Positions 51-63,697 of a stretch of 64,000 nucleotides of DNA are shown here, in pieces. Source of the stretch: Eledone cirrhosa (lineage: Eukaryota). The stretch is taken from assembly GCA_964016885.1 (NCBI GenBank), contig OZ024745.1:90334001-90398000 (forward strand), given 5' to 3'. A model generated the notes under the pieces. That model searched no databases. It was not told the origin of the DNA and saw only the letters and a list, made by a program, of their open reading frames with translations. Numbering within the stretch: position 1 is the stretch's first letter; each line of letters begins with the position of its first letter. Made by a program: the position numbers and the translations under genes.

Positions 51-1163
51 ATGGCCGTACTCAGAACAGGCAGTATAAATGCACGTGGCCTGGGGTCATC
101 TTGGAAGCAGGGTAACCTGCTCAACGACCTCAGGTCACTAAACATAGATGTGGTGGCCATCAGTGAAACCAGAATCTCCGAAGCACAAGTCTTCGCACCG
201 ATCTTCGGCGGCTACGATGTATACGCATCTCCCAGCCGTCCAGGATCGGGGGGAGGGGTTGCCGTCCTTTTTCGGAGAGGCTTGGATCTCGCCATACGGG
301 CCATCTTCCTAGACCCAGAATAGTATAAGTTGTCCACAATTTAAAATAGTCGACTACACAGACCACAAATTTGTGATCTGTGAAATCGACATAGACAGAC
401 TTCATAGACAAGGGCCTGGTTACTGGAAGCTGAACGCGTCTTTCCCTGCGCGCAAAGCTTACAGAGATCGGATTAGCGTATTAGTTAAACGGGCGTTGGC
501 GGGAGCGGTTGTCAACAACAGGTGGTGTTTCGCCCTGAAAAGGGCAATTAAAGTAGAGTCGATTATGTTTTGCAAAGGAGTAGTGTTAGAGGAAAATAGA
601 GTAGAGGGAGAGCTAGTCAAAAAGCTAGACGAGGCGTTTAGGACAGGCATCGCAACCGACGTGCTTACGGCGAGATTGGCACTCGACCAATTCTTCAACG
701 CAAAACACGAAGGCTACGTTGTCAGAGCTAGAGCGCGTGCTCTGAAACACGAGGGGACAAAAGCCGTCCAATGGGCTAACCCTAACCCTAACCCTAACCC
801 TAACCCTATCCTGGGCGTCGAAGAAGATCAGCTGTTTGCCCTCTTCCGGAGAACTTTCAATCCGGGACCTATGGATAACTTCCAAAAATCCCTGGCCTGG
901 CAGTGCTACCGGGGAGGGCTGCCGGTTTGAGATAAGCTCTACAGGCACGGAAGTGCCGCCAGCCGAGCCTGTCCGAGATGCGCGCAGAGCGACGAAACCG
1001 TCTTGCACGCACTCGTTCAGTTCCCGAGCATTGCTGACTTGTGGAGCTATGTCGAACAGTTGCTGTCGCGTGTAGGACTGATCCGGTTGTCGACTGAGTC
1101 CATTATGCAGAAGGTCTCGCCGTCTTCCTTCGAGGAGGAAGGGCAAGCGGTTTTCATCTGCCT
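51..1163 (+). mobile_element. Tx1/L1-clade non-LTR retrotransposon ORF2 remnant, internally deleted (APE N-terminus, linker, C-terminal CCHC region; RT missing)
   Basis: MAVLRTGSINARGL..DVVAISETR (APE motif I), YTDHKFV, GPGYWKLN, then FQKSLAWQCYRGGLPV. Collinear with the element at 53823-57197 but with deletions near 320 and near 776-808. Confidence 0.9.
776..808 (-). repeat. Interstitial telomeric repeat, (TTAGGG)5.5
   Basis: Plus strand reads ctaacc x5 + cta. Confidence 0.9.
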
Positions 1164-2450: not shown

Positions 2451-2454
2451 TTAT

Positions 2455-3895
2455 ATCTTTATTGGCCACAAGGGCTGACATCAAGAAAAACATTACAGAC
2501 GGCACAGGACGGTACTGGACGGTACTATGTGGGTTTTGTGCGTGTAAAGATATTTATTATTTATATAAGATACGAAAAAGAAAAAAGACATAGAAACATA
2601 TATATACATAAACAATAAAAATGAAAATTGAAACAATGAAATATTCCCCAATAGGGGGGGGGGGGGCCTCCGAGGGTTACTCGTGGCGAAAACCACACAA
2701 AAGACCACGGCCACACTGACCACCAGGGCAAGCGCCCTCTCTCAATTTGTTTCCCATTCCTCAAACTACAAGCGTATATTCAGAGCAGTCCCGTTCACTC
2801 GGACTATTCTCGCTACATTCACCCACCTTTCAACAAACTTACTAGAAGACAGCACTTGCCTCTCCACCCTGATTTTCCTCTTCAAGTGAAACTTGAAAAA
2901 GTTAATCAGGGATTCGCCGAAGAGGAAAGTGTCTGTCTTTAACTCTTTCAACCTTGTCCACCACAATCTCTTTCGCCATGGCCACCAGGCAGATGAAAAC
3001 CGCCTGCCCTTCCTCCTCGACAGCAACTGTTCGACATAGCTCCACAAGTCAGCAATGCTCAGGCACTGAGCGAATGTGTGCACGACGGTTTCGTCGCCCT
3101 GCGCGCATCCCGGACAGGCTCGGCTGACGGCACTTCCGTGCCTGTAGAGCTTATCTCGAACCGGCAGCGCTCCCCGGTAGCACTACCAGGCCAGGGATTT
3201 CTGGAAGTTATCCATAGGCCCTGGGCTGAAATTCTCCGAAGGAGAGAAAACAGGTGATTTTCTTCGACGCCCAGGATCTCTCCGAGAACGTCGTCGCTCT
3301 TCCCTTCCACTAGCCCTCTATAGAACGCCGAGGCGTATGTTCCACCGATACTGGTGCCCAGCTGGCAGAGGGCAGTGAGCGCCTGGAGACATTCCAGTTT
3401 CCAAGCGCTATCCCTCGGTCTTTTCCTGACCCAGGACTGCAGTTCCGTCAAGGAGACGAGCTGTAGGAAAACGTGCCTGGCGAACAGCGACCACACCTGT
3501 TCACCGTCAAGGAAGCACCAGAGGTGTCGCAGCCTCAGCGCATGTTTGCGCATCATCAGCCATGGCATGCCCAGTCCTCCACGAAACGGGTGTTGACAGC
3601 AGATGGGTCGTCTGACCATGGGAGCGCCTCCCTTCCACAAAAAGCGGAAGAGGAGGCGCTCCATTTTTGGTGAGAGTTGGGCCGGGGCAAGGGACGACGA
3701 TGAGGTGGTAGCAGATGACGGATGCGATGTACGCATTTGCCACCTCCACCCGGCCTTTCAGGGACAGCTTCCTCGCGGCCCATTTCTGGGTGAGGGAGGC
3801 CACCCTGCTCGTCACCTCGCTCCAGTTTTTCTCCATCTGGAGGTCCGGGCCGAACAGACCCCGAGCAATTTAACCGGTCCGTCCGTCCAACGAAG
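2455..3895 (-). mobile_element. 5'-truncated Tx1/L1-clade LINE (ORF2 C-terminus + 3' UTR), frameshifted
   Basis: KLSLKGRVEVAN, FRFLWKG, GGLGMPWL, FFKFHLKRKIRVER..FVERW. 3' UTR ends gtggccaataaaga on the minus strand. Confidence 0.9.
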
Positions 3896-28982: not shown

Positions 28983-30410
<1,428 letters not shown>

Positions 30411-32448: not shown

Positions 32449-32527
32449 CGAAGGAATTGTGGTAAGGAGCTAGATGGACCATAACGCACCAAAGTATTCA
32501 ATACTTAGGGTAGTAGAGTGGATAATA

Positions 32528-34639
32528 GGAACAAGTATGACCCCGATGGCAGAACTCAAGCCGTTTCGACGGCTATTTCTGGATTAAATAAGAATTTTTA
32601 GCCTGGGAAATAAATAGCCAAACCTCTCAAGGGGAATTTCCTTATATGAGAAGATAGTAATTGTCAAGATGATTGGTTAAAATTTGTTATAAAGACAGAT
32701 AAATCTATCGTGGCATTTGGTGAGAGGTAGGGGTGGCTGAACTTTCCGGTAAAACAAAGAGGGAATGGGGAAAGCCAGTCAGGCGTTGAAAGTGAAATCT
32801 ATACAGCAGATTCTAAGGATAGTGTATAAAAGGTCTAAAAATTGTACTGGAGAAAGGATGGGGGGTTAAAGAATAGGTAGGTCGAAAGGGAGTAAAATAA
32901 AACTATTTATAAAAATAAATATATAAAGACAATATTGATAGTGAGAAATGAAAAAAACAAAAACAGCTGCTAAAAATTAGTAGGTATTGCTAAGCTATAG
33001 AAAATTTTAATAGGTAGAGAATGGGAAAAAAACGAGATTGTAGTTGGTCGTGAAAACAATTTTTAAAGCCGGCTCTACAGGGGTCTAACACCGCTGCAAT
33101 AAATAGTTAGTAAAGCGTAATCAGCCAATGCTATCTTACGATGACAGGTTAATAAGTTGAGAACAAAAACACTAAATAAGGAATTTAGAAATTATAGAAA
33201 TGGAGTAGTAACAAAAAAGAAACAATTACGGGGTCTAACACATCTGCTATAAAAAGCGTAATAGGCCAATTCTATCTTAAAATTACGGGGGAGGGGGTAC
33301 TGAGGCTACAGAGGACCAATGGGCTGCATCAGGGTAGGCGAAAGGTGAAAGACAGACGAGGAAGTAGATCGGGGGTGGAAGGAATAAGATGAGATGGGGG
33401 GTAGAAGGGAACGTAGAGGAAAAGAAAAAAGGTTACTTCTACCTATGTAAGCAGGGGTTGCCCCTTACAAAATCGGCAAGTGGGGGGTATCAGCCCTTGT
33501 CTACCCACCTGGATCGTTATCGTTATGGGGTTTGAGGGCGAGGTACGTCCTACGCAATCTGTGTTTGCATGCGGTTACCAGTTCGTCTTTCTTGTTTAGG
33601 AGTTGGTCCTTAGAAAACAACATTTGTAATGTTTCCTCCGAGCATAAGCTACATGGACGGCCTCCTCCCTTGTAAGAGTTAGCTCTGGACAGTAAGCTCC
33701 AAGTGAGATTGTAGGCTATATTATTATCTTTGAGGTCCCAGATGTGGCCCGAAAGTGTAGTGGCATGTCGCCGGACCGAGTTTCGGAAAGTAAGCCGATC
33801 TCCTTCCCCGTCTGTCTTTCACCTTTCACCTACCCCGATGCTGCCCATTGGTCCTCTGTAGCCTCATACCCCTTCCCCCGTAATTTTAAGATAGAATGGG
33901 CCTATTACGCTTTTTATAGCAGATGTGTTAGACCCCGTAATTGTTTCTTTTTTGTTACTACTCTATTTCTATAATTTCTAAATTCCTTATTGAGTATTTT
34001 TGTTCTCAGCTTATTAACCTGTCATCGTAAGATAGCATTGGCTGATTACGCTTTACTAACTATTTATTGCAGCGGTGTTAGACCCCCTGTAAAGCCGGCT
34101 TTAAAAATTGTTTTCACTACCAACTACAATCTCGTTTTTTCCCATTCTCTACCTATTAAAATTTTCTATAGCTTAGCAATACCTACTAATTTTTAGCAGC
34201 TGTTTTTGTTTTTTTCATTTCTCACTATCAATATTGTCTTTATATATTTATTTTTATAAATAGTTTTATTTTACTCCCTTTCGACCTACCTATTCTTTAA
34301 CCCCCATCCTTTTCTCCAGTACAATTTTTAGACCTTTTATACACTATCCTTAGGATATGCTGTATAGATTTCACTTTCAACGCCTGACTGGCTTTCCCCA
34401 CTCCCTCTTTGTTCTACCGGAAAGTTCAGCCACCCCTACCTCTCACCAAATGACATGATATATTTATCTGTCTTTATAACAAATTTTAACCAATCATCTT
34501 GACAATTACTATCTTCTCATATAAGGAAATTCCCCTTGAGAGGTTTGGCTATTTATTTCCCAGGCTAAAAATTCTTATTTAATCCAGAAATAGCCGTCGA
34601 AACGGCTTGAGCTCTGCCGTCGGGGTCATACTTGTTCCC
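32528..34639 (-). mobile_element. Penelope insertion with inverted pLTR: GIY-YIG tail (33545-33790, minus) + pLTR, and an inverted ~845-bp pLTR copy (33795-34639)
   Basis: 32528-33372 is the reverse complement of 33795-34639. Homologous to 17915-19110. RPCSLCSEETLQMLFS on the minus strand. Confidence 0.9.
34532..34625 (+). ncRNA. Hammerhead ribozyme motif (U3-A8 variant) in the pLTR; mirror copy at 32541-32634 (minus)
   Basis: CCCC-UUGAGAG-[GGCUAUUU..AAAUAGCC]-GAAA-CGGC..GCCG-UC-GGGG. Confidence 0.6.
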
Positions 34640-34777
34640 ATATATATATATATATATATATATTACTCTTTTACTCTTTTACCTGTTCCAGCCATCCAGC
34701 TGAGGCCATGCTGGGGCACCGCATATATATATATCAATGATATTAATAAGTGGAAACTATATTTATAAAACCATATT

Positions 34778-52932: not shown

Positions 52933-53206
52933 TACAGGAGGAAGTGCTGAAAAGTTCCTGGCTTTGGGCAAAACAAAATACAAGAAGATCAGTTGAAAGA
53001 AATTACAGGAAGATCAGTTAAAAGAAAATACAGGAGGATCAGTTAGTTATGATTTTATTCAATATATTCCTCTCTCAGATTCACACACTTATTGCAGCGA
53101 TGGGAAGAGCTGTTACCATTATATGGGAAGTAGTTCCCATGTAATGGTAACAGCTCTTCCCTTTCGTGATACGCTTTAAGCCAGGAACTTTTCAGCAACC
53201 ACTCGA
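52933..53206. mobile_element. Mariner-type MITE with an internal 60-bp palindrome
   Basis: TIRs gtgctgaaaagttcctggctt / aagccaggaacttttcagca; hairpin at 53102-53161. Confidence 0.8.
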
Positions 53207-53822
53207 ACATATTTGAGAGCATGGGTAGCCGTTTAGATAGTCTTCAGACAAGATATTAAAATGGGTATTTGATTTAGTATTTAGCAGCTGAACATTGTAA
53301 GCGAAATATACTCTCGAATCTTCTGCTCTGATTGATTGCTAGATTTGAAGAACTTTACTAATATATAAACAAGAGAAGACGTGACATATGTAGTTGTGAG
53401 TGAACTGAAGATAAAATGGAACTCAATGTGGTGAAAATAGTGATATTTCAGTTGTTTAACCAATGTGTTTTCTTTAAGCATTTTGTCATTTTAAAATAAG
53501 TTTAGAACAGAAATTAGTTATTTTTACTCCAAATTCTCAAGTGTGTTATGTAATATATGTATATGTCCATAGATATATAGATATGTTTCTTTATTAGCCA
53601 CAGGGGCACAAAAGAAGGGGACAAATACAAAGGGGGAAGTTTAGATACAATAAAAACGTATAAAATGTTATCACAAATGCAATTTAAAAAGTTAGTCGAT
53701 TTTCCCCAATAGAGGGAGACAGTTCATATGGGTAACACATACCGCCGAAAAAATGTGCAACCCTCATCTCCAGGAGTACGAAGAGTTTGTACTCCTTTCC
53801 TCTCCTCCTCCTTTTCCTCAAC

Positions 53823-56800
53823 CTACAGGCTGATATAGAGAGAAGGCCCATTCACTCGGGCCATTCTCGCCACTTTCACCCACCTTTCATAAAACTTGCT
53901 GGGGTACAGCACCTCTCTCTCCATCCTGATTCTTCTTCCAAAGTGGTATTTGAAAAAAAGAATCAGTTGTTGGCCGGAGAGAAAGGTGTCTGACCTCAGC
54001 CCTTTCAACCTTGTCCACCATACAACCTCTTTCGCCATAGCTATCACACAAAGGAAAACCGCCTCTCCTTCGGTTTTGAAGGAGGGTGGCGGTTTGATCA
54101 TGACAATGGACTCGGTGGTCAACCGGATTGGTCCCACCCGCGACAATAGTCGTTCTACATAGCCCCACAGGTCAGTGACGCCCGGGCAGTGTATGAATGC
54201 GTGCGCGACGGTTTCTTCGTCTCGCACGCACCTCGGACATATCTTTTTTGCAGGGTCCCTGCCCGGGCGCCCTTGTCTGTAGAGCTTGTCTCGAACTGGT
54301 AGAGCTCCTCGGTAGCACTGCCAGGCCAGGGACTTTTGGAAGTTTTCCATCGGTCCCGGGCGGAAGGTCCTACCGAACAGACTGGCTAGTTCATCTTCCT
54401 CTGCGCCTAGAGTTTCACCGAGCGCGTCGTCGCACTTGCTGCGGATCAACCCTCTATAGAATGACGAAGTAGAGTCTCCACTGATCGCCGGGTCCGCCTG
54501 CCAGAGGGCTGTGAGCGCCTGAGCACATTTGATGTGCCAGTCGCCCATTTTCCTCGGTCTTTGCTTGACCCAGGACTGCAGCTCGGTCAGCGAGACGAGT
54601 CGTGGGAAGGCTCGCCTCACGAACGGGGCCCACACCGGTTGTCCGGTGAGGAATACGTAGAGTTGCCGCAGCCTGAGCGCGTGTTTGCGCATCGTCAACC
54701 ACGGAATCCCCAGCCCTCCGTTAGAAGGGTGTTGGCAGCAGATGGATCTTCTCACCAAAGGAGCGTTTTGGCTGGACAAGGCACGACGGTCAAGCGGTAG
54801 TAGATGGCGGACGCTATAAAAGTGTTCGCCACCTCCGCTCGACCTTTCAAGGATAGTTTGCACTCGGCCGACTTCTGGGTGAGTGCAAACACCTTGGCCG
54901 TCACTTCGTTCCAGTTCTTCGTCACCTGGAGGTCCGGACCAAACCAGACCCCGAGCAGCTTTACCGGTCCTTCCGTCCAGCGTCCGACGACGCCATCGGA
55001 AGGCATCGGTTTGCCTTTCCACGATCCGAGTTGCAAACCGATGGACTTGTCCCGGTTCAGCTTCGCTCCTGTGAAACTTTCGTATTCCTTCAGTAAGGTG
55101 CCGACTTCCTCGATTTGCGAGGCGCTCGACACCATTACTGTAACGTCGTCGGCGTAGGCCGACGCCGCTTTCCCAGTCCCGGTTCCAGAGGGATGCCCTG
55201 CAATAGCTCCAACTTCCGCAGTAGTGGCTCGAGAGTCAGTACGTACAGAAAGGAGGAGAGAGGGCATCCCTGTCGAATGGATCGCGTAATATGGAACGGC
55301 TCCGAGAGGTAGCCGTTCACCTTGACCCTTCAGTAGATGTTGCTGTTGTGCATTGCAGCAATCCAGCCCCTGAACACGGGTCCGAAGCCTGCCGCCTCGA
55401 ACACCGCATCCAGGTAACGATGGTCAACCCTATCGAAAGCCTTAGACTGAACCAAGTTGATCAGGGCCCCACCGAAGCCGGGTTTACACCCTACCCTCTC
55501 TATGATGTATCGCATGAGGTGGAGGTTGTCGTGTATGGACCTGGTCGGGATTGCGCATGTCTGCGCTTCTCCTACCAGGTTCTCAACGACAAGCGCCAGC
55601 CTCTTTGCCAACACCTTGGCCAAAATCTGTAACTCTGTGTTTAGCAGAGTTATGGGCCGGAAGTTGCATATGTCATCCCCCTTATTCTCGTCCTTCCTGA
55701 CTAGTGTGACCACGCCCCCGGTTACAGAACTGGGAATTCTATCGTTCTGTTGCCAGTTGCAGTAGACCGCTTCCAGGAGACCGGAGAATAAGTCCGGCAT
55801 TGCTACGTAAAATTCGTAGGGTATACCGTCGAGACCTGGAGATTTGCGTTTGCCGCATTGGCTCAGCGCGTCCCCTATCTCAGCGGCTGAAATCGGCTTT
55901 TCGCAGAACTTTGCCTCGCTGTCCGAGAGTCGCGGTAGGCCGTCGAGGTATGGACCGAAATCCATAGCTCCTCCCGGCGCGCCGCCCCGCCCGAACAGTT
56001 GAGCAAAGTGCCGCTGAAAGGCCGCACATATCTGCTTCGGCTCACGTATCACGCGTCCGTTTTGGTCCTTCAAAGACCGAATCGTGGACTTGTTGCCACT
56101 TTTTGCCTCCGTCACTCGGGCCCAGCTAACAGCTTTGGCTCCCTCGTTTCCCAGAGTACGTATTTTGCTTGTGACAACGCAGCCCTCGTGCTTTGCGTCG
56201 AAGAACTGGTCCAATGCCGTTCTCGTTGCTAGCACGCTGGCTACGTTGCCACTTCTAATTGCCTCTTCTACTTTATCTACCAGTTCCTTCTATCTAACGC
56301 TAATTCTTTACTAAAAACTAACGAGTCTAATCTAACTGCCCTCTTGAGAGAGTACCACCATCTGTTGTTGACAATGGCCCCCGTCAAGTGCTTCTTAACT
56401 AAAGTGCTAATCCGTCTACTGTAGGCTTTGCATGTGGGTAACGACAAGTTCAGCTTCCAGTAGCCGGGTACCTGTCTATGGGTTTTGTCAAGGTTGACTA
56501 AGCAGGTCACTAATTTGTGATCTGAATAGGCAACCATAAACATTTGTGGACAGCTTAACATGTCCCTATCCTTCTTTCTAACTAGAACCCTATCTAGGTA
56601 CGATCTAGATGTTCCGCTGCGATTAGTCCACGTCCACAGTGGCACAGTCGGAAAATCTAGTCGATATCTATCGGCCAGGTCAAATCGGTCGATTAACTGT
56701 TTGAGGCTGTTACACCCCCCTTTATCGGGACATACTCCCACATAGTGCCAACGTGCATCTAGGATTCCATTCCAGTCCCCCACTAAAAGCAAGGAGCGGG

Positions 56801-57197
56801 ACGTTCCCAGAAAAGTCTCTAGACGCTTGAAGAAGTCTGGCCGCGGAGTCCGCGATGGGGCATATGCGGCCACGAGCCTGAAGGCTCCACCTTCACTACC
56901 GTCAACGTCTAGGACCACCAGTCGACCCTCCAGGTCCAGATGTATCGTCTGTGTTACGAGGCCCAGGTGTTTCCTCGGCAAAACGACAACCCCTCCCCCA
57001 CCTCCCGGCTGACTTAGAGATGCGTAGATCTCATAGTCATCGAAGATGGGAGCCAGCTGTCGCTCGCTGTGAATCCTGGACTCGCAGATGGTCATTACAT
57101 CCACACTGTGCGACCTGAGGTCGTTTAGGAGTTTGCCTTGTTTCCAGGGCATCCCCAGGCCGCGTACATTGACACATCCAACTCTTATATTGGCCAT
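53823..57197 (-). pseudogene. Tx1 ORF2 (APE endonuclease + reverse transcriptase + CCHC), several frameshifts
   Basis: NVRGL, GDWN, SYLDRVL, SDHK, KSPGLDG, NFRPITLLN, SKAFDRVDH, RQGCPLS, AYADD, CPRC..ETVAHAFIHC. Confidence 0.95.
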
Positions 57198-57470
57198 GTT
57201 GGTGCTGAAAAGTTAAAAGAAGAGGAAAAGAAATCACTCACCTCTTCGTCGCCTGGGGACCAGGCTGCACGATTTCCATCAGAGTGTTAGATGGGTTGTC
57301 TGGGTGGCGGGGTTCCGGCGGGGTGGGGACGGAGATATTTGGTGGGGAGGGCTGTCTGAGGTGGGTGTGTCTGGGGTGGAGAAATATTTTAAAAGGACGC
57401 GGTTAATTGGTTTAACACAAGGATTACCCACGTCCTTGGGAAAGTTTTAGGGACCCTAATCATCTTTAAA

Positions 57471-59155
57471 TTAAGTTTGTCTACACAGTTCGAAAAAGTC
57501 TTCGGTTTTCACCGAAGGGTCGTTGGAGATAACCTCCATTAAAGTTTTGTTTTCACTGTTTATGTATGTGTAATGTTTTTGTTGTGTTGTGTTGGTTATT
57601 GTCTGTTGTTCTTGTGTGGTGTGAGCTTTCGTTTTGTTGTAGGTGTTTGTGTTTGGAGTGATGTCGTGGTTTTGTTTTCGGGACGGGGGGGTTTGTAATG
57701 TTTGTAATGTTTGTGTTGTTTTTGTTGGTGGTTGTATGTTTGTAGTGATGTTTGTTGTTTTGTTGCTCTTGTGGTGTCTTTTCTTCTTTCTTTTCGAACG
57801 GAGAGGCTCTCCCTCATCGTCACTTGGTGATGATGAGGGGGCCTCGTCCGTTGTGGTGTCTGTGTTATTTGGAAGGGGGTATGCTTTGAGGAGCTGTTGT
57901 GTTTTGGGGTGTTTTGCAGTGGTTTTAGGTGGAGTAGGGTTGGGTGGGACTGTGCTTGCAGTTTGTTTTGTTGTTCTTGTTTTGGTTATGTTTGCGTGTT
58001 GTTGTTGTTGTTGTTGTTGCGGTGGTGGTTGTGTTGTTGTTTTGGGTGTTGGCAGTAGTGCCTCTTTTTTTTTGTAGTTAGCTGAGGACAGTAAGCCTTC
58101 AGGTGACCACTGCTTAAACAGTGGTAAAATGAAGGCCACCTACCCTCAACAGAAATGTTTATGTGTGAAATCCCATCCAGAGGCACACGTTGGGGTATTT
58201 TAGCTATCCGTTCTGGTCTCATTTGGACCAGAACTTCCAGGCTTGTACCATTGAATGTGCCTCTGGAGGACTTTCCCACTGAAATGATGGTGTCTTCATC
58301 GAAATCGATGAAGCCAGTCAAAATCCACCAGACGTTTACATTTGGTGCAATGTTCGAAATTTTTATCTTCTGGGTTCTTTTTCCCATGTATGTGGGGAAA
58401 AAGGTGTAAAGCGGGGACGCAATCGGTGACACAGAATAATTTTGTGCCGTCAATTGGTCTTTCAACAACACCGAAATGCTTCCAAAAAGTTTACGTTTTT
58501 GGATGAAGGCAATATCCTTCATGGAATTTTTCAGAACCAGTTCAATGTGGTTTTGGGATAATTGGACTGGTTTTTTCGACACATTTGTTTTTAGGATAGT
58601 TTCTCTACGTAACTGTTGAGGAGAAGTGATGCTGAAAGCACCACTCTCACCAAAGGTTACATACTGCTTTGTATCACCTAACAATTCCCTAGCATTGGAA
58701 ATGTCAAGGTATGTAAACAGTTCCGTCTTTTGGACGGTTTTTGCGAAGGAAATCTTTTCCTTGTTTGTGGAGTTGTTCGTGTTGCTGTTGTTGTTGTTGG
58801 TGTTGTTGTTGTTATCATTGTTGCTGTTGCTGTTGTTGTTGTTCTTGTTGTTGTTGTTATTGTTGTTGTTCTGGTTGGTGTTGTTCACATTTTTCATCTT
58901 ATTGGTGTTGTTGTTGGTTTTTTCGTGTGTAGTTGAGTCAATTGTTTCAATTTCTGCATTTTCTGTGTTTGTTGGTGTCTGTTGTCGGCTGTTATTTTCA
59001 TCTTTTGTTGTGTGAATATTCATTTCTTTACGAAACGAAGTATTGTTGTTGTTCGTCTCCATAGATACTTCTATGGAAATAGAGGGAGATATAACGCTTA
59101 TATCTGTCTCTTTCCTTCTCTTCTCGCAGTCTAGCGTTCGTTGTAAGTCACACAT
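57471..59155 (-). pseudogene. Tx1 ORF1 (gag-like, Asn-rich N-terminus, degenerate CCHC knuckle), frameshifted
   Basis: SFAKTV..PTYMGKRT.., YHCLSSGHLKAYCP; lies immediately upstream of ORF2. Confidence 0.85.
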
Positions 59156-59381
59156 TGTTAAAGTTAGGAAAATTTTTAAAACTTGTCAATTCTTTAAAAT
59201 TAAATTTCCGCCCCTGTGGGGCGAAAACTGAGATTACCACCCAGCTGACAATTCAGCCTGGGTGTTAATCTATCAAACAATATAAAATTTTACACAATGA
59301 ATTCTGTCTTTGTATGGAAAATTTTACAAAAAACTTACCAGCGATCTACCGCACGTCCGATAGAGAGAGATAGATAGATAT

Positions 59382-60930
59382 ATTTCTTTATTTGCCACAA
59401 GGGCGCACAAGAAAAGGGGATAATACAAAGACATGCCGGGGATTTTACATACATTCATGTAAAAAAATATAAAAACAAACAATTACAACAATCGAAATCC
59501 CCAATAGGGGGGAGGCGCCACAAATGGGTTGTTTAATACCCCGTCGATAGAACAACCCTCAACTGCAGGAGCGTGTTGTGCAAGTGCTCCTTTCTTCCTT
59601 TTGCTCTCTTCTTCAACCTACAGGCTTATAAACAGAGAAGGCCCAATCACTCGGGCCATTTTCGCTTCATTCACCCACCTTTCAGAAAATTTACTGGGGT
59701 GCAGTGCCTCTCTCTCCACTCTGATTCTCCTTCTAAAGTGATACTTAAAGAAGGAAATCAATTGTTGTCCGGAGAGAAAGGCATCTGTCCTCAGTCCTCT
59801 CAATCTCGTCCACCATATAACTTCTTTCACCATAGCCACCGTACAGAGGAAAACCGCCTCTCTTTCGTTTTTGAAAGAGGCTGGCGGTTTGATCCTTACT
59901 ATGTACTCGGCAGTCAACTGGATTTGCCCCATACGCGACAGCAATTGTTCTACATAGTTCCACAGGTCGGTTACGCCCGGGCAGTGTACAATTGCGTGCA
60001 GGACTGTTTCAATGTCCTGCGCGCATCTTGGATACGTCCTCTTGAAAGGATCCCTGCCGAGGCGTCCGTGCCTGTAGATCTTGTCACGAACCGGTAGAGC
60101 TCCTCGGTAGCACTGCCAAGCCAGGGACCTCTGGAAGTTGTCCATAGGTCCCGGGCGGAAAGTCCTACCAAACAGACTGGTGAGGTCATCGTCTTCGACG
60201 CCCAGTGTCTCTCCGAGCACGTCATCGCCCTTGTAACGTACAATCCCTCTATAGAATGTCGAAGTGGAGTCTCCACTGATTGCTGCGCCCGCTTGCCAGA
60301 GGACTGTGAGCGCCTGAGCGCATTCAATTTTCCAGGCGCCCATCGTTTTCGGTCTTTTCTTGACCCAGGACTGCAGCTCCGTCAGCGAGACGAGCTGTGG
60401 GAAAGCCTGTCTCACAAACGGTGCCCACACCGGTTGGAGTCGGGGAGGAATACCTGGAGATGCCGCAGCCTCAGACACGGCATTCCCAGCCCTCCGTTGG
60501 AAGGGTGCTGACAGCAGACGGATCTCCTCACCAGCGGAGCCTGCTTCTTCCACAGAAACTGGAAGAGCATGCGTTCCATCTTGGCGTGGTGTTCACGGGG
60601 ACAAGGCACGACAGTCAAGCGGTAGTAGATGACAGACGCTATGAAAGTGTTCGCCACCTCCGCTCGACCTTTCAAGGACAGTTTGCACTCTGCCCACTTC
60701 TGGGTGAGTACAAACACCTTGGCCGTGACCTCGTTCAGTTTTTCTCCACCTGGAGGTCTGGACCGAACCAGGGGTGAGTTAATTCTAAATCCACCTTTCT
60801 CTTCGAAAGTTACAAATTTTCTCCCTTGCTGGAGCATATCTCTTGCATTGGAGATGTCAAGATTTATAAAATCTTGTTTTTTGTTCACTGTTTCAGCGAA
60901 AGACATTTTCTTTTTTTTGTGTGGTGTTGC

Positions 60931-60967
<37 letters not shown>

Positions 60968-61512
60968 ATCGTTGTTAGTCTCGGTGTTGGAAATCTCAGT
61001 TCCTTGACGAGGTGAAACATTGTGTAGATGTATCTGTGGAGTTGTTGATGTCTTTTTCATGTGTATGTATGTTAATAGGTTTAATTTCTGTGTTTTCATG
61101 TGAGTTAGTGTTATTTTTCTCCGCTTCGACGGTAGAAATTGTACAATTTTCGAGTGGTAACATTTTTTCCTCTTTGTTGACAGTCGTATCTATGACGACG
61201 TCCATAGTAGCAGAAGCAGATATAACGTTGAAATCTGCCTCTTTCTCTCTCTTTTCTCTATTGACGTTCTCCAGCGTTCCCTTTGTGTTATTCGTGTTTT
61301 ATAGTTTGCAAAATTTGATATTTTAAAACAATTTTTAAATTAAATTTTCACCCCTAAAGGGGCGAAAACTGAGATTACCACCCAGCTGACAATTCAGCTT
61401 GGGGTTTAATCTACGAAATAATATGTTTTTTCAAACAATTTGTTCTGCTTTTCGTATATAAATTTTTAAAAAATCTTACCGGCGATGTTTCACACGTCAG
61501 ACAGAAAGAGAG
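59382..61512 (-). mobile_element. Internally deleted Tx1 element of a second subfamily (5' UTR + ORF1 start fused at about 60770 to the ORF2 C-terminus + 3' UTR)
   Basis: MSFAETV..FVTFEEKGGFRINSP is joined to tggttcggtcc (WFGP)..KLSLKGRAEVAN..FSERW. Confidence 0.92.
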
Positions 61513-61525
61513 ATAGATAGATAGA

Positions 61526-61833
61526 TTTCTTTATTTGCCACAAGGGCGCACAAGAAAAGGGGATAATACAAAGACATGCCGGGGATTTTACATACAGTCG
61601 TGTAAAAATTATAAAAACAAACAATTACAACAATCGAAATCCCCAATAGGGGGGGGAAGCACCACAAATGGGTTGTTTAATACCCCGTCGATAGAACAAC
61701 CCTCAACTGCAGGAGCGTGTTGTGCAAGTGCTCCTTTCTTCCTTTTGCTCTCTTCTGCAACCTACAGGCTTATAAACAGAGAAGGCTCAATCACTCGGGC
61801 CATTTTCGCTTCATTCACCCACCTTTCAGTAAA
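61526..61833 (-). mobile_element. 5'-truncated Tx1 3' end (same subfamily as 59382-61512)
   Basis: Nearly identical to 59383-59690. Confidence 0.92.
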
Positions 61834-61845
61834 GATAGATAGATG

Positions 61846-61877
<32 letters not shown>

Positions 61878-61878
61878 T

Positions 61879-62255
61879 GTTTCTTTATTAGCCACATGGG
61901 TACAAAAGAAGGGGACAAATACAAAGGGGGGAAGTTTAGATACAATAAAAACGTGTAAAATGTTATCACAAATGCAATTTAAAAAGTTAGTCGATTTTCC
62001 CCAATAGGCGGAGACAGTTCATATGGGTAACACATACCCCCGAAAAAATGTGCAACCCTCAACTCCAAGAGTACGAAGAGTTTGTACTCCTTTCATCTCC
62101 TCCTCATTTTCCTCAACCTACAGGCTGATATAGAGAGAAGGCCCATTCACTTGGGCCATTCTCGCCACTTTCACCCACCTTTCATAAAGCTTGCTGGGGT
62201 ACAGCACCTCTCTCTCTATCCTGATTCTTCTTCCAAAGTGGTATTTGAAAAAAAG
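61879..62255 (-). mobile_element. 5'-truncated Tx1 3' end (same subfamily as 53585-59370)
   Basis: Nearly identical to 53585-53960. Confidence 0.92.
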
Positions 62256-63697
62256 ATAGATAGATAGATAGATAGATCGATAGATATTTGCATAGTAATT
62301 ATATTCATATTCAACTTGGCATACTATGTATGCCAATTTGAACATTTATGCTTAAATTATTAAATATCTCGTGAAGACGTTTAGACCAAGTTTAATTGTT
62401 GTTTATAAGAGTTTTTTTAGAATAGTTATATACAAAATTATAGCGAATTTTCTTTATATATCTGTTGGGGAAACTAGTCTTGATGGGAATAAGACGAGTC
62501 TACGAACACTCATAAGCTCAATGCTATTGATGCTATGTGGTTTAAATTGACTTATAGAATTGTATTATGGTCAAAAGTCCATACTGCGGAAAAAAAGTTC
62601 TTTCACTTAACGGAAACACTTCCTGATAGAAAGCTGTCGGTTTGCTCTCAAATTATTCTATTCGGCAGTTACCCTAGTTTCGTAGAAGCAATCTATAATT
62701 AAGTTACAGTCAGATACTTTTGAGGTATATTATTCACTTTGCACCAAATGATAGTATCCAATTTGTTGTTTACTTCACAGTTAATTATAGTATAAAAGTA
62801 TTTGCGGCTATTGATCGTGTTTCAGAGATGGGTCGATCATTTTAGTGGTATGTTTAAATTAGTTTATCTGTCACTGTCTCCGCTAATTGCCGCTGAACGA
62901 TACAATCAACAGAGTACAGCAGACATATTCAATATCTATAAATCAGAAGTTAACTTATCCAGTCTGGTAACTTTTTGTTAACTATAGCAATGTCTAACAA
63001 AAACACATTGTTTAACTGCCAACAATATTTAAATGTATTCAGGTTTTTTTAGGTGCAAAATCTAAAAATGGTCATAGTTTTGCCAAAATTAGCTGTAGTC
63101 TTTGTGATATTAGATATTCCTCAAATATTGTTTTTACTCCAATATAACCTATAGTTGAAGAGGGATTATATGGATCACATTACTCGTCAAAATTGTATTT
63201 TATGAATTTATACAATCTAAGTTTTAATATAATCTTATCTTTAATTTATGGTGAATATACTTTATAAAATTAAAATAAATTTGTCACCACTCTATATGGA
63301 ATTTGGTAAACAAATTCACCGATTGCTTCAAATACAATTATAAATCGTTCCCTGCACCGAGTGAAGTTGAAAGCAGCTTTATTTGATGTAAACTCATCAA
63401 AGATACAAATTTTACAATTTTTATTAACAATATTGAACCTTTAACTTCAATGCAGTAATTTGCCGAGTTAACAACAATGAAGATAACCACAAAACAAATA
63501 TAGAGTTTCTACTAAAGATATTCGATACATTTAAAGATTTTTATGCAGAGTCGTTAGAAGGTCAGATAAAATGCTTTGCGGTATTCGTTCCCGCTCTCTA
63601 TTCACCGAGGTCACCTTTGCCTTTCATCCATTTGACGTCGATAAAAAAGTACTAGTCAGGTACTGGGATCGATTTTTCTTCTATATCTCTTTCTCAC

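Follow-up and report, generated by a model that had tools for sequence, protein, structure and literature searches.

Stacked Tx1-type LINE copies in a GATA microsatellite and a probable (TATC)n target preference of their families

KNOWN ELEMENTS WITH MICROSATELLITE TARGETS

Several families of the Tx1 type insert into pyrimidine-rich microsatellites. The teleost families Kibi and Koshi reside in (TC)n and (TTC)n, respectively, and crocodilian Tx1 families occur in (TTCC)n or (TTTC)n (PMC4494074). LINE families A and B, described below, share with all of these the APE-RT non-LTR organization of the Tx1 type and a pyrimidine-rich microsatellite as the target. Tx1L of Xenopus laevis, whose endonuclease in vitro nicks almost solely its target, provides a model of a specific APE nick and resembles A and B as a Tx1-type element with sequence-specific insertion. 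The target of Tx1L is the Tx1D transposon, however, and its endonuclease was assayed in vitro (PMC1950540), whereas A and B are known here from sequence. Waldo (ACAY), Mino (AC), and Dong (TAA) (PMC3812793) as well as Togen, with a (TG)n target (PMC4640811), have simple-repeat insertion in common with A and B but belong to different clades, and TATC/GATA is listed as the target for none of them in the relevant sections of these papers. The TAA of Dong is of the same repeat class as the (ATT)n flanking family C, a sister of A and B. How APE-type elements target microsatellites is poorly understood, according to a 2013 review (PMC3812793). No element targeting TATC/GATA was found in the literature searched, the scope of which ended short of Repbase and of further Tx1 targets in the figures and supplements of PMC4494074. 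Tx1 elements that insert into microsatellites are of a kind already known, and (TATC)n is a real, new target variant that adds to the Tx1 target list.

STRUCTURE OF THE ARRAY

The window, a stretch of 64 kb, contains four Tx1-type LINE copies in the order A'-B'-B-A, all on the minus strand, as established by direct reading and self-BLAST. Element A (53584 to ~59362) is full length and ends with AATAAA plus 6 nucleotides without poly(A). It is flanked at its 3' end by a degenerate (TATC)n tract (53570-53583), which matches the tract 5' of A except for 1 base in 13 and is likely, from this resemblance, the downstream copy of the target-site duplication of A. Between B and A lie (TATC)3 and a short (TC)n (59363-59380, minus strand), appearing on the plus strand as a GAGA run and (GATA)3. 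Element B (59381 to ~61505) retains both ends and has an internal deletion of ~3.7 kb at 60775/60776 that joins the start of ORF1 to the C-terminal part of the reverse transcriptase (RT). A (TATC)3 tract (61512-61523) separates B from B' (61524-61833), a 5'-truncated B copy of 310 bp with 96.4% identity to B, and (TATC)11 with one substitution (61834-61877) separates B' from A' (61878-62254), a 5'-truncated A copy of 377 bp with 96.3% identity to A. Upstream of the truncated end of A' stands (TATC)8 (62255-62286), followed by non-element DNA; all of these tracts are likewise given for the minus strand. Across subfamilies, A' is 71% identical to B, and B' is 69% identical to A. A scan of the whole window for the GATA pattern gives, beyond the four perfect tracts of the array, one further, imperfect match at 30217.

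An earlier sequence-only reading had described four same-strand insertions from two diverged subfamilies, with A full length, B deleted, and B' and A' 5' truncated, and this description holds. Its junction coordinates are accurate within a few bases, (GATA)n separates and flanks all four copies as proposed, and the outermost tract indeed sits at the truncated 5' end of A' with no element beyond it.

CODING CONTENT AND CLADE PLACEMENT

ORF2 of element A (53823-57197, minus strand) carries at least 3 frameshifts and one stop and encodes an N-terminal APE endonuclease (57197-56430), an RT, and a C-terminal zinc-binding region (zf-RVT), which is the layout of the L1 group. The corresponding Pfam matches are PF03372 (E 1.8e-13), PF00078 (E 4e-9), and PF13966 (E 1.7e-6). 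The catalytic positions of the APE align with those of human L1, and the closest PDB matches of ORF2 are to human L1 ORF2p. ORF1 of A (57471-59185, minus strand) is frameshifted and without a Pfam match in the window. Its CCHC knuckle is degenerate in A and intact in other copies; the form C-x2-C-x4-H-x4-C is present in many copies, and zf-CCHC clusters are matched in the Atlas at 0.92. A Gag-like CCHC knuckle in ORF1 is a feature of the Tx1 clade. The marks of target-primed reverse transcription known from the L1 group, namely, variable 5' truncation, a fixed 3' end, target-site duplications, and the absence of LTRs, are present as well.

Of six database-named fish TX1/YTX2/pol-like proteins, five give 213 to 250 bits with the RT of B and the sixth, Q76IM7, gives 159 bits; within the pol-like set, the next-lowest score after Q76IM7 is 221 bits. 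Outside the Tx1 type, in a test of scores only, human L1 reaches 129 to 131 bits and R2 reaches 45 to 64 bits. In a quick RT tree, whose rows include neither L1 nor Xenopus Tx1L and whose base is open, A and B fall with further subfamilies in one TATC clade (SH-aLRT, 99), and the A/B/C group and the database-named fish Tx1-type proteins form separate clades (SH-aLRT, 100 each). By the scores, the RT of B is closer to Tx1 than to L1, and A and B appear to be of the Tx1 type, as judged from these scores and the quick tree with database-named proteins in place of Repbase references. An Atlas match to "Transposon TX1" at 0.88 serves as a lead only, and none of the closest homologues retrieved in a cluster look-up carried a name. 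Q76IM4, Q76IM5, Q76IM7, and a Danio pol-like protein are, we assume, Kibi/Koshi. Families A and B differ from Kibi and Koshi in their target, which is (TATC)n rather than (TC)n or (TTC)n, in their invertebrate-type host genome, and in an RT that stands apart from the database-named fish proteins presumed to represent those families.

GENOME-WIDE FLANKS

Genome copies were picked with 3' UTR queries lacking the tract, and the 40 best-scoring matches each for A and B were taken, a choice that under-samples old copies. Left out of these 80 were 3 window copies, 1 segmental duplicate, and 10 copies whose 5' ends stayed ambiguous; in the final classes, L049 counts as solitary and L006, L014, and L169 count as stacked. 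A 5' tract was scored as a TATC run of at least 8 nucleotides within 25 nucleotides of the 5' end.

Among the matches listed, (TATC)n adjoins the break on its upstream side in 23 of 39 solitary copies with a truncated 5' end (A, 14/20; B, 9/19), compared with 0.31% of 79,800 random windows from 20 arbitrary 10-kb stretches (binomial p 5e-48). The opposite-strand repeat occurs at none of these 39 5' ends, and a control window 75 to 100 nucleotides upstream holds the repeat in 2 of the 39. In the same matches, the tract is present 5' of 15/18 stacked truncated copies and 9/9 full-length B copies, and 26 of 29 A 5' ends have the repeat within 40 nucleotides. At the 3' side, TATC extends over at least 8 nucleotides in 58/76 and at least 6 nucleotides in 68/76 of the listed matches. 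The register is fixed there, with every one of the first seven bases, TATCTAT, matched in 66 to 73 of 73 listed copies; poly(A) tails are found at 0 of these 73 junctions. Strong enrichment at both ends in a fixed 3' register is what the sequence-only reading had expected of targeting, and the outcomes it had named as contrary, (TATC)n at the 3' end only or random flanks, are not observed. PMC4494074 regards a Tx1 family as target specific when one sequence type makes up >20% of flanks; the share of (TATC)n lies above this value at the 5' end (23/39) and the 3' end (58/76).

Imperfect targets reveal target-site duplications of 9 to 17 bp. In a set of 42 copies fixed before the final class changes, 8 have informative duplications, versus 2.4% of 1,722 mismatched pairs (p 7e-6), and 34 have none. 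The 5' tract is absent from 16 of the 39 listed solitary truncated copies, some of which look like the products of later insertions or deletions. Off-target insertions occur, among them L039, with an informative duplication and no TATC tail. The preference is not absolute, and a TATCTAT-like core seems sufficient. A few A and B ends adjoin (TC)n (L063 and L060).

INSERTION MECHANISM AND ALTERNATIVE EXPLANATIONS

The array most probably arose when two Tx1-type LINE families with a genome-wide preference for (TATC)n/(GATA)n inserted on four separate occasions, a preference likely due to their APE endonuclease nicking the GATA strand, from which reverse transcription is primed. Recognition of (TATC)n by the APE endonuclease is inferred from the sequences; the first nick would fall at GATA/GATA or GAT/AGAT, with one base ambiguous. 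Every insertion would duplicate 9 to 17 bp of the target and thereby leave a fresh tract on either side, which slippage could lengthen and by which copies would pile up head to tail. L1 endonuclease work indicates that integration is shaped by factors beyond nicking (PMC1950540).

The most serious alternative, although an unlikely one, accepts the targeting as real and ascribes it mainly to RNA-DNA pairing, in which (UAUC)n of the transcript anneals to the nicked GATA strand and picks the priming site. Transcripts are generally cleaved 10 to 30 nucleotides after AAUAAA. Since the element ends just 6 nucleotides past AATAAA, cleavage of its transcripts would fall within the flanking tract and leave (UAUC)n on them. 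The lack of poly(A) in 73 junctions, the fixed 3' register, the higher frequency of TATC at the 3' side (68/76 at 6 nucleotides or more) than at the 5' side among the matches listed, and APE hairpin loops that barely differ between target classes are consistent with pairing. The final bases of L039 and L018, however, join a non-TATC target directly, with a target-site duplication and without added repeat or poly(A). Pairing may act jointly with endonuclease targeting and contribute to it.

It is very improbable that (TATC)n is merely a 3' tail of the templated kind seen in many CR1 and RTE elements, with the array tracts being the tails of neighbours. The repeat is on nearly all 3' ends, and some solitary copies have it there alone, but the 23 of 39 solitary truncated copies mentioned above carry it upstream of scattered breaks with no element 3' end within 500 nucleotides, and off-target copies lack a tail, which largely refutes this explanation. 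Equally improbable is local tandem duplication or mis-assembly of the array. Tandem copies with identical truncation points do exist at L019, L020, and L021, and no contig spans the array: X2-X4 contigs, from one sample that is possibly the source of the assembly, match 53070-53598 and 62318-63600 with zero differences, and none bridges the array by 31 letters. Yet the order A'-B'-B-A does not form a repeat unit, the four 5' ends all differ, and mixed arrays occur on many contigs. A'/A and B'/B are ~96% alike, copies elsewhere are equally close or closer, and A' is absent from the 40 best matches to the 3' UTR of A (98%). Segmental duplication, raised in the sequence-only reading as a possible refutation, fails on the finding that copies on other chromosomes are at least as close to A and B as A' and B' are. 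No empty allele was recovered among contigs and reads placed on the array, where other copies swamped the signal, and orthologous cover of the right flank was absent from X1 and from two RAD runs. X1, which bears another organism label, contains A-like sequence and joints of element interiors to a GATA tract; with a short side of just 24 letters, these are a weak hint and were not counted.

Least probable of all is random insertion with mere retention or passive accumulation of copies in microsatellite-rich regions. The genome is microsatellite rich, and copies of Drosophila Waldo-A/B have been suggested to accumulate passively (PMC3812793), but this process fails to give the strand specificity (23 versus 0 of 39), the base-exact register, or the TATC/ATT split of sister families in one genome; it is ruled out by orientation and register.

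SISTER FAMILY C AND THE TATC/ATT SPLIT

Targeting by the lineage itself agrees with the flanks of sister family C, which shows ~70% DNA identity to the TATC families and is flanked by (ATT)n. With one locus unscored, its 3' flanks are ATT in 21/28 and TATC in 0/28; its 5' flanks are ATT in 8/21 and TATC in 0/21, the count of 8/21 being rough because two duplicate pairs are among the 21, as are some ends at which just the alignment stops. ATT is found at 0/80 3' flanks of A and B among the matches listed. As C is flanked by ATT and never by TATC, the target follows the lineage. The endonucleases of the TATC and ATT branches are ~60% identical, and their hairpin loops differ at merely two positions. 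With two sister lineages this close, living in one genome and differing in target, the determinants of targeting become testable.

A broader reading, for which the chances are slightly below even, is that these families belong to an undescribed Tx1-type LINE radiation, independent of fish Kibi/Koshi and split into (TATC)n- and (ATT)n-specific branches, in which the TATC branch creates the sites where it lands and shapes the GATA microsatellites of the genome. If this is true, the TATC/ATT pair is a natural experiment in target switching by APE retrotransposons. GATA microsatellite markers in this genome call for caution, since they frequently border the ends of high-copy LINEs. Of 16 GATA tracts in 200 kb of arbitrary DNA, 4 come immediately after the 3' end of an element, and 3 of these 4 belong to a single array.

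Structure and origin of the array

Four Tx1-type LINE copies lie on the minus strand at window positions 53584-62254, and sequence reading, ORFs and self-BLAST confirm the claim of the sequence-only reading that all four share one orientation and are joined by GATA repeats. The order in element direction is tract, A', tract, B', tract, B, tract, A and degenerate tract, the tract being (TATC)n on the element strand and (GATA)n on the plus strand. A' and B' comprise 377 bp and 310 bp, B retains both ends with ∼3.7 kb deleted, and A is full length at 5.8 kb. In A, ORF1 includes a CCHC knuckle, and ORF2 encodes APE, RT and zf-RVT; both ORFs are broken in this copy, and the APE catalytic positions line up with those of human L1.

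The array is not a local duplication, an origin that the same reading had named as counting against its claim. A' is 96.3% identical to A and B' 96.4% to B, and copies on other contigs are equally close or closer; furthermore, no two of the four 5' ends coincide, and the order A'-B'-B-A contains no repeat unit. Mis-assembly is unlikely, a grade set no lower because reads do not bridge the array span. Elsewhere in the assembly, tandem copies at loci L019, L020 and L021 share identical 5' truncation points, indicating that local duplication or repeated use of a template does enlarge some arrays. An inverted segmental duplication is seen at L171 and L172 (contig C2), where two nearly identical B copies with matching flanks face opposite ways a few kilobases apart.

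Flanking repeats across the genome

Searches of the 3.0-Gb assembly with the A and B 3' UTRs, tract excluded, gave 1,106 and 245 candidates, respectively. The best 40 of each were scored, and all 80 copies were inspected, 40 of them in longer stretches. Apart from 3 own copies, 1 duplicate and 10 copies lacking a resolved 5' end, these comprise 9 full-length copies, 18 truncated copies that follow another element and 39 that are truncated and solitary. Among these best 40 A and best 40 B copies, the 5' end has a TATC run (≥8 nt) no more than 25 nt away in 9/9 full-length copies, 15/18 copies truncated behind another element and 23/39 solitary truncated copies, the other 16 being without a tract. 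The genomic background of such runs is 0.31%. In the same 39 solitary copies, the opposite-strand repeat occurs at no 5' end, and a control window 75 to 100 nt upstream contains TATC in two. When the A 5' end was searched separately, the repeat lay within 40 nt in 26/29 cases. The proposed (TATC)n targeting is thus borne out by the flanks: targeting by a Tx1-type lineage is real, genome-wide, and strand and register specific.

Arrays that mix A, B and other subfamilies are common; one, L151, lies inside an arbitrarily chosen control stretch. TATC junctions also mark one or more additional subfamily clades, with several kinds of 3' UTR, at L151, L162, L178 and array neighbors. The Kibi-type target, pure (TC)n, borders single A/B ends (5' flank of L063, 3' flank of L060), and a short TC run is frequent at full-length 5' ends.

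Junctions and probable insertion mechanism

Element 3' ends read AATAAAGAAA and then a dinucleotide typical of the family (CA, TA or TC). The seven positions beyond it fit TATCTAT, each matching in 66 to 73 of 73 copies, as expected from the predicted fixed register, with the match decaying further out; poly(A) is found at none of these 73 junctions. Target-site duplications are readable where the target is imperfect, in 8/42 copies compared to 2.4% of mismatched pairs, and measure 9 to 17 bp, with one ambiguous case of 23 bp. An obligatory templated tail as the source of (TATC)n is argued against by L039, an off-target insertion with a 9-bp duplication and no TATC tail. At L006 and L014, the duplication extends into the downstream element's 5' end (at L014, ∼90 bp around an A copy, spanning the tract as well as the 5' terminus of another Tx1-type element), which shows that these copies inserted upstream of older elements.

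Most likely, the APE domain would first nick the GATA strand, and the register suggests a putative site at GATA/GATA or GAT/AGAT. The RT would then start copying the RNA at the fixed 3' end of the transcript; cleavage of the second strand 9 to 17 bp away would duplicate the target, providing two new landing sites per insertion. The available text on Tx1L-EN gives a precedent for the nick in its in vitro specificity and describes further factors contributing to integration specificity (PMC1950540). The main rival explanation is that read-through UAUC repeats pair with the primer, so that RNA pairing picks the site; the few bases that follow AATAAA and the lack of poly(A) suggest it. On sequence alone, APE nicking and UAUC pairing look the same, and the two may act together.

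Relationships and the sister family C

The B RT region scores 213 to 250 bits against five fish proteins named TX1, YTX2 or pol-like in the database and 221 or 159 bits against two Takifugu proteins, compared to 129 to 131 bits against human L1 and 45 to 64 against R2. A quick tree with 67 rows, SH-aLRT support only, no L1 row and an open base groups 16 rows from A, B and a third subfamily in a single clade (support of 99), with 3' ends comprising 13 TATC, one off-target copy and two unread. Five family C rows form another clade (support of 100), and A/B and C are jointly sister to unnamed 1,150-aa proteins, apart from the fish group. L196 is a Tx1-type copy outside both the TATC and ATT clades.

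Family C (window copy at 2452-3890, minus strand; loci L091-L120 and L181-L198) shows 68 to 72% DNA identity with A/B over 1.5 kb. Of 2,055 candidates, the best 40 were scored and 30 loci were read. Among these best 40, ATT runs are found at 21/28 3' ends and, by rough count, 8/21 5' ends, against a background of 0.58%, and TATC at 0/28 and 0/21. Conversely, ATT is found at 0/80 3' ends of the best 40 A and best 40 B copies. The target therefore follows lineage. Family C also builds ATT-separated arrays of its own, e.g., L194. At the APE hairpin, most A and B copies have NRSGTS, whereas NRIGSS is the usual sequence in C, a difference that appears to track the target as a correlation over two groups only. 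Family C copies often lie where a SINE or RTE element has its ATT tail; the window copy occupies the tail of an RTE-like element (∼1170-2445) in antisense orientation.

Microsatellite-targeting Tx1 elements are already known, with the targets TC, TTC and TTCC/TTTC (PMC4494074); non-LTR elements of other clades target ACAY, AC and TAA (PMC3812793) and TG (PMC4640811). For Octopus vulgaris, a repeat annotation records 13 L1-Tx1 families with recent activity, and its accessible text does not contain the word "target" (PMC13282606); the accessible parts of PMC8869645, PMC13586686 and PMC10294476 add nothing further. No TATC/GATA target was found in the literature searched, as far as its text was available; sources outside that scope, Repbase among them, may list one. 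Within the text covered, (TATC)n is a new target for a kind of element already known. A specialist would expect the finding in kind yet find it useful, chiefly for the TATC/ATT sister pair.

Other features of the window

A SINE frequent in the window presumably resembles octopus SINEs. Self-BLAST shows an 850-bp inverted repeat pair (32525-33372 and 33795-34641, 96.7% identical), probably a DNA transposon. Telomeric (CCCTAA) sequence, five and a half units long, occupies 776-808 between two distant Tx1-type ORF2 parts with the RT deleted, which suggests that telomeric repeat was added when a break was repaired.
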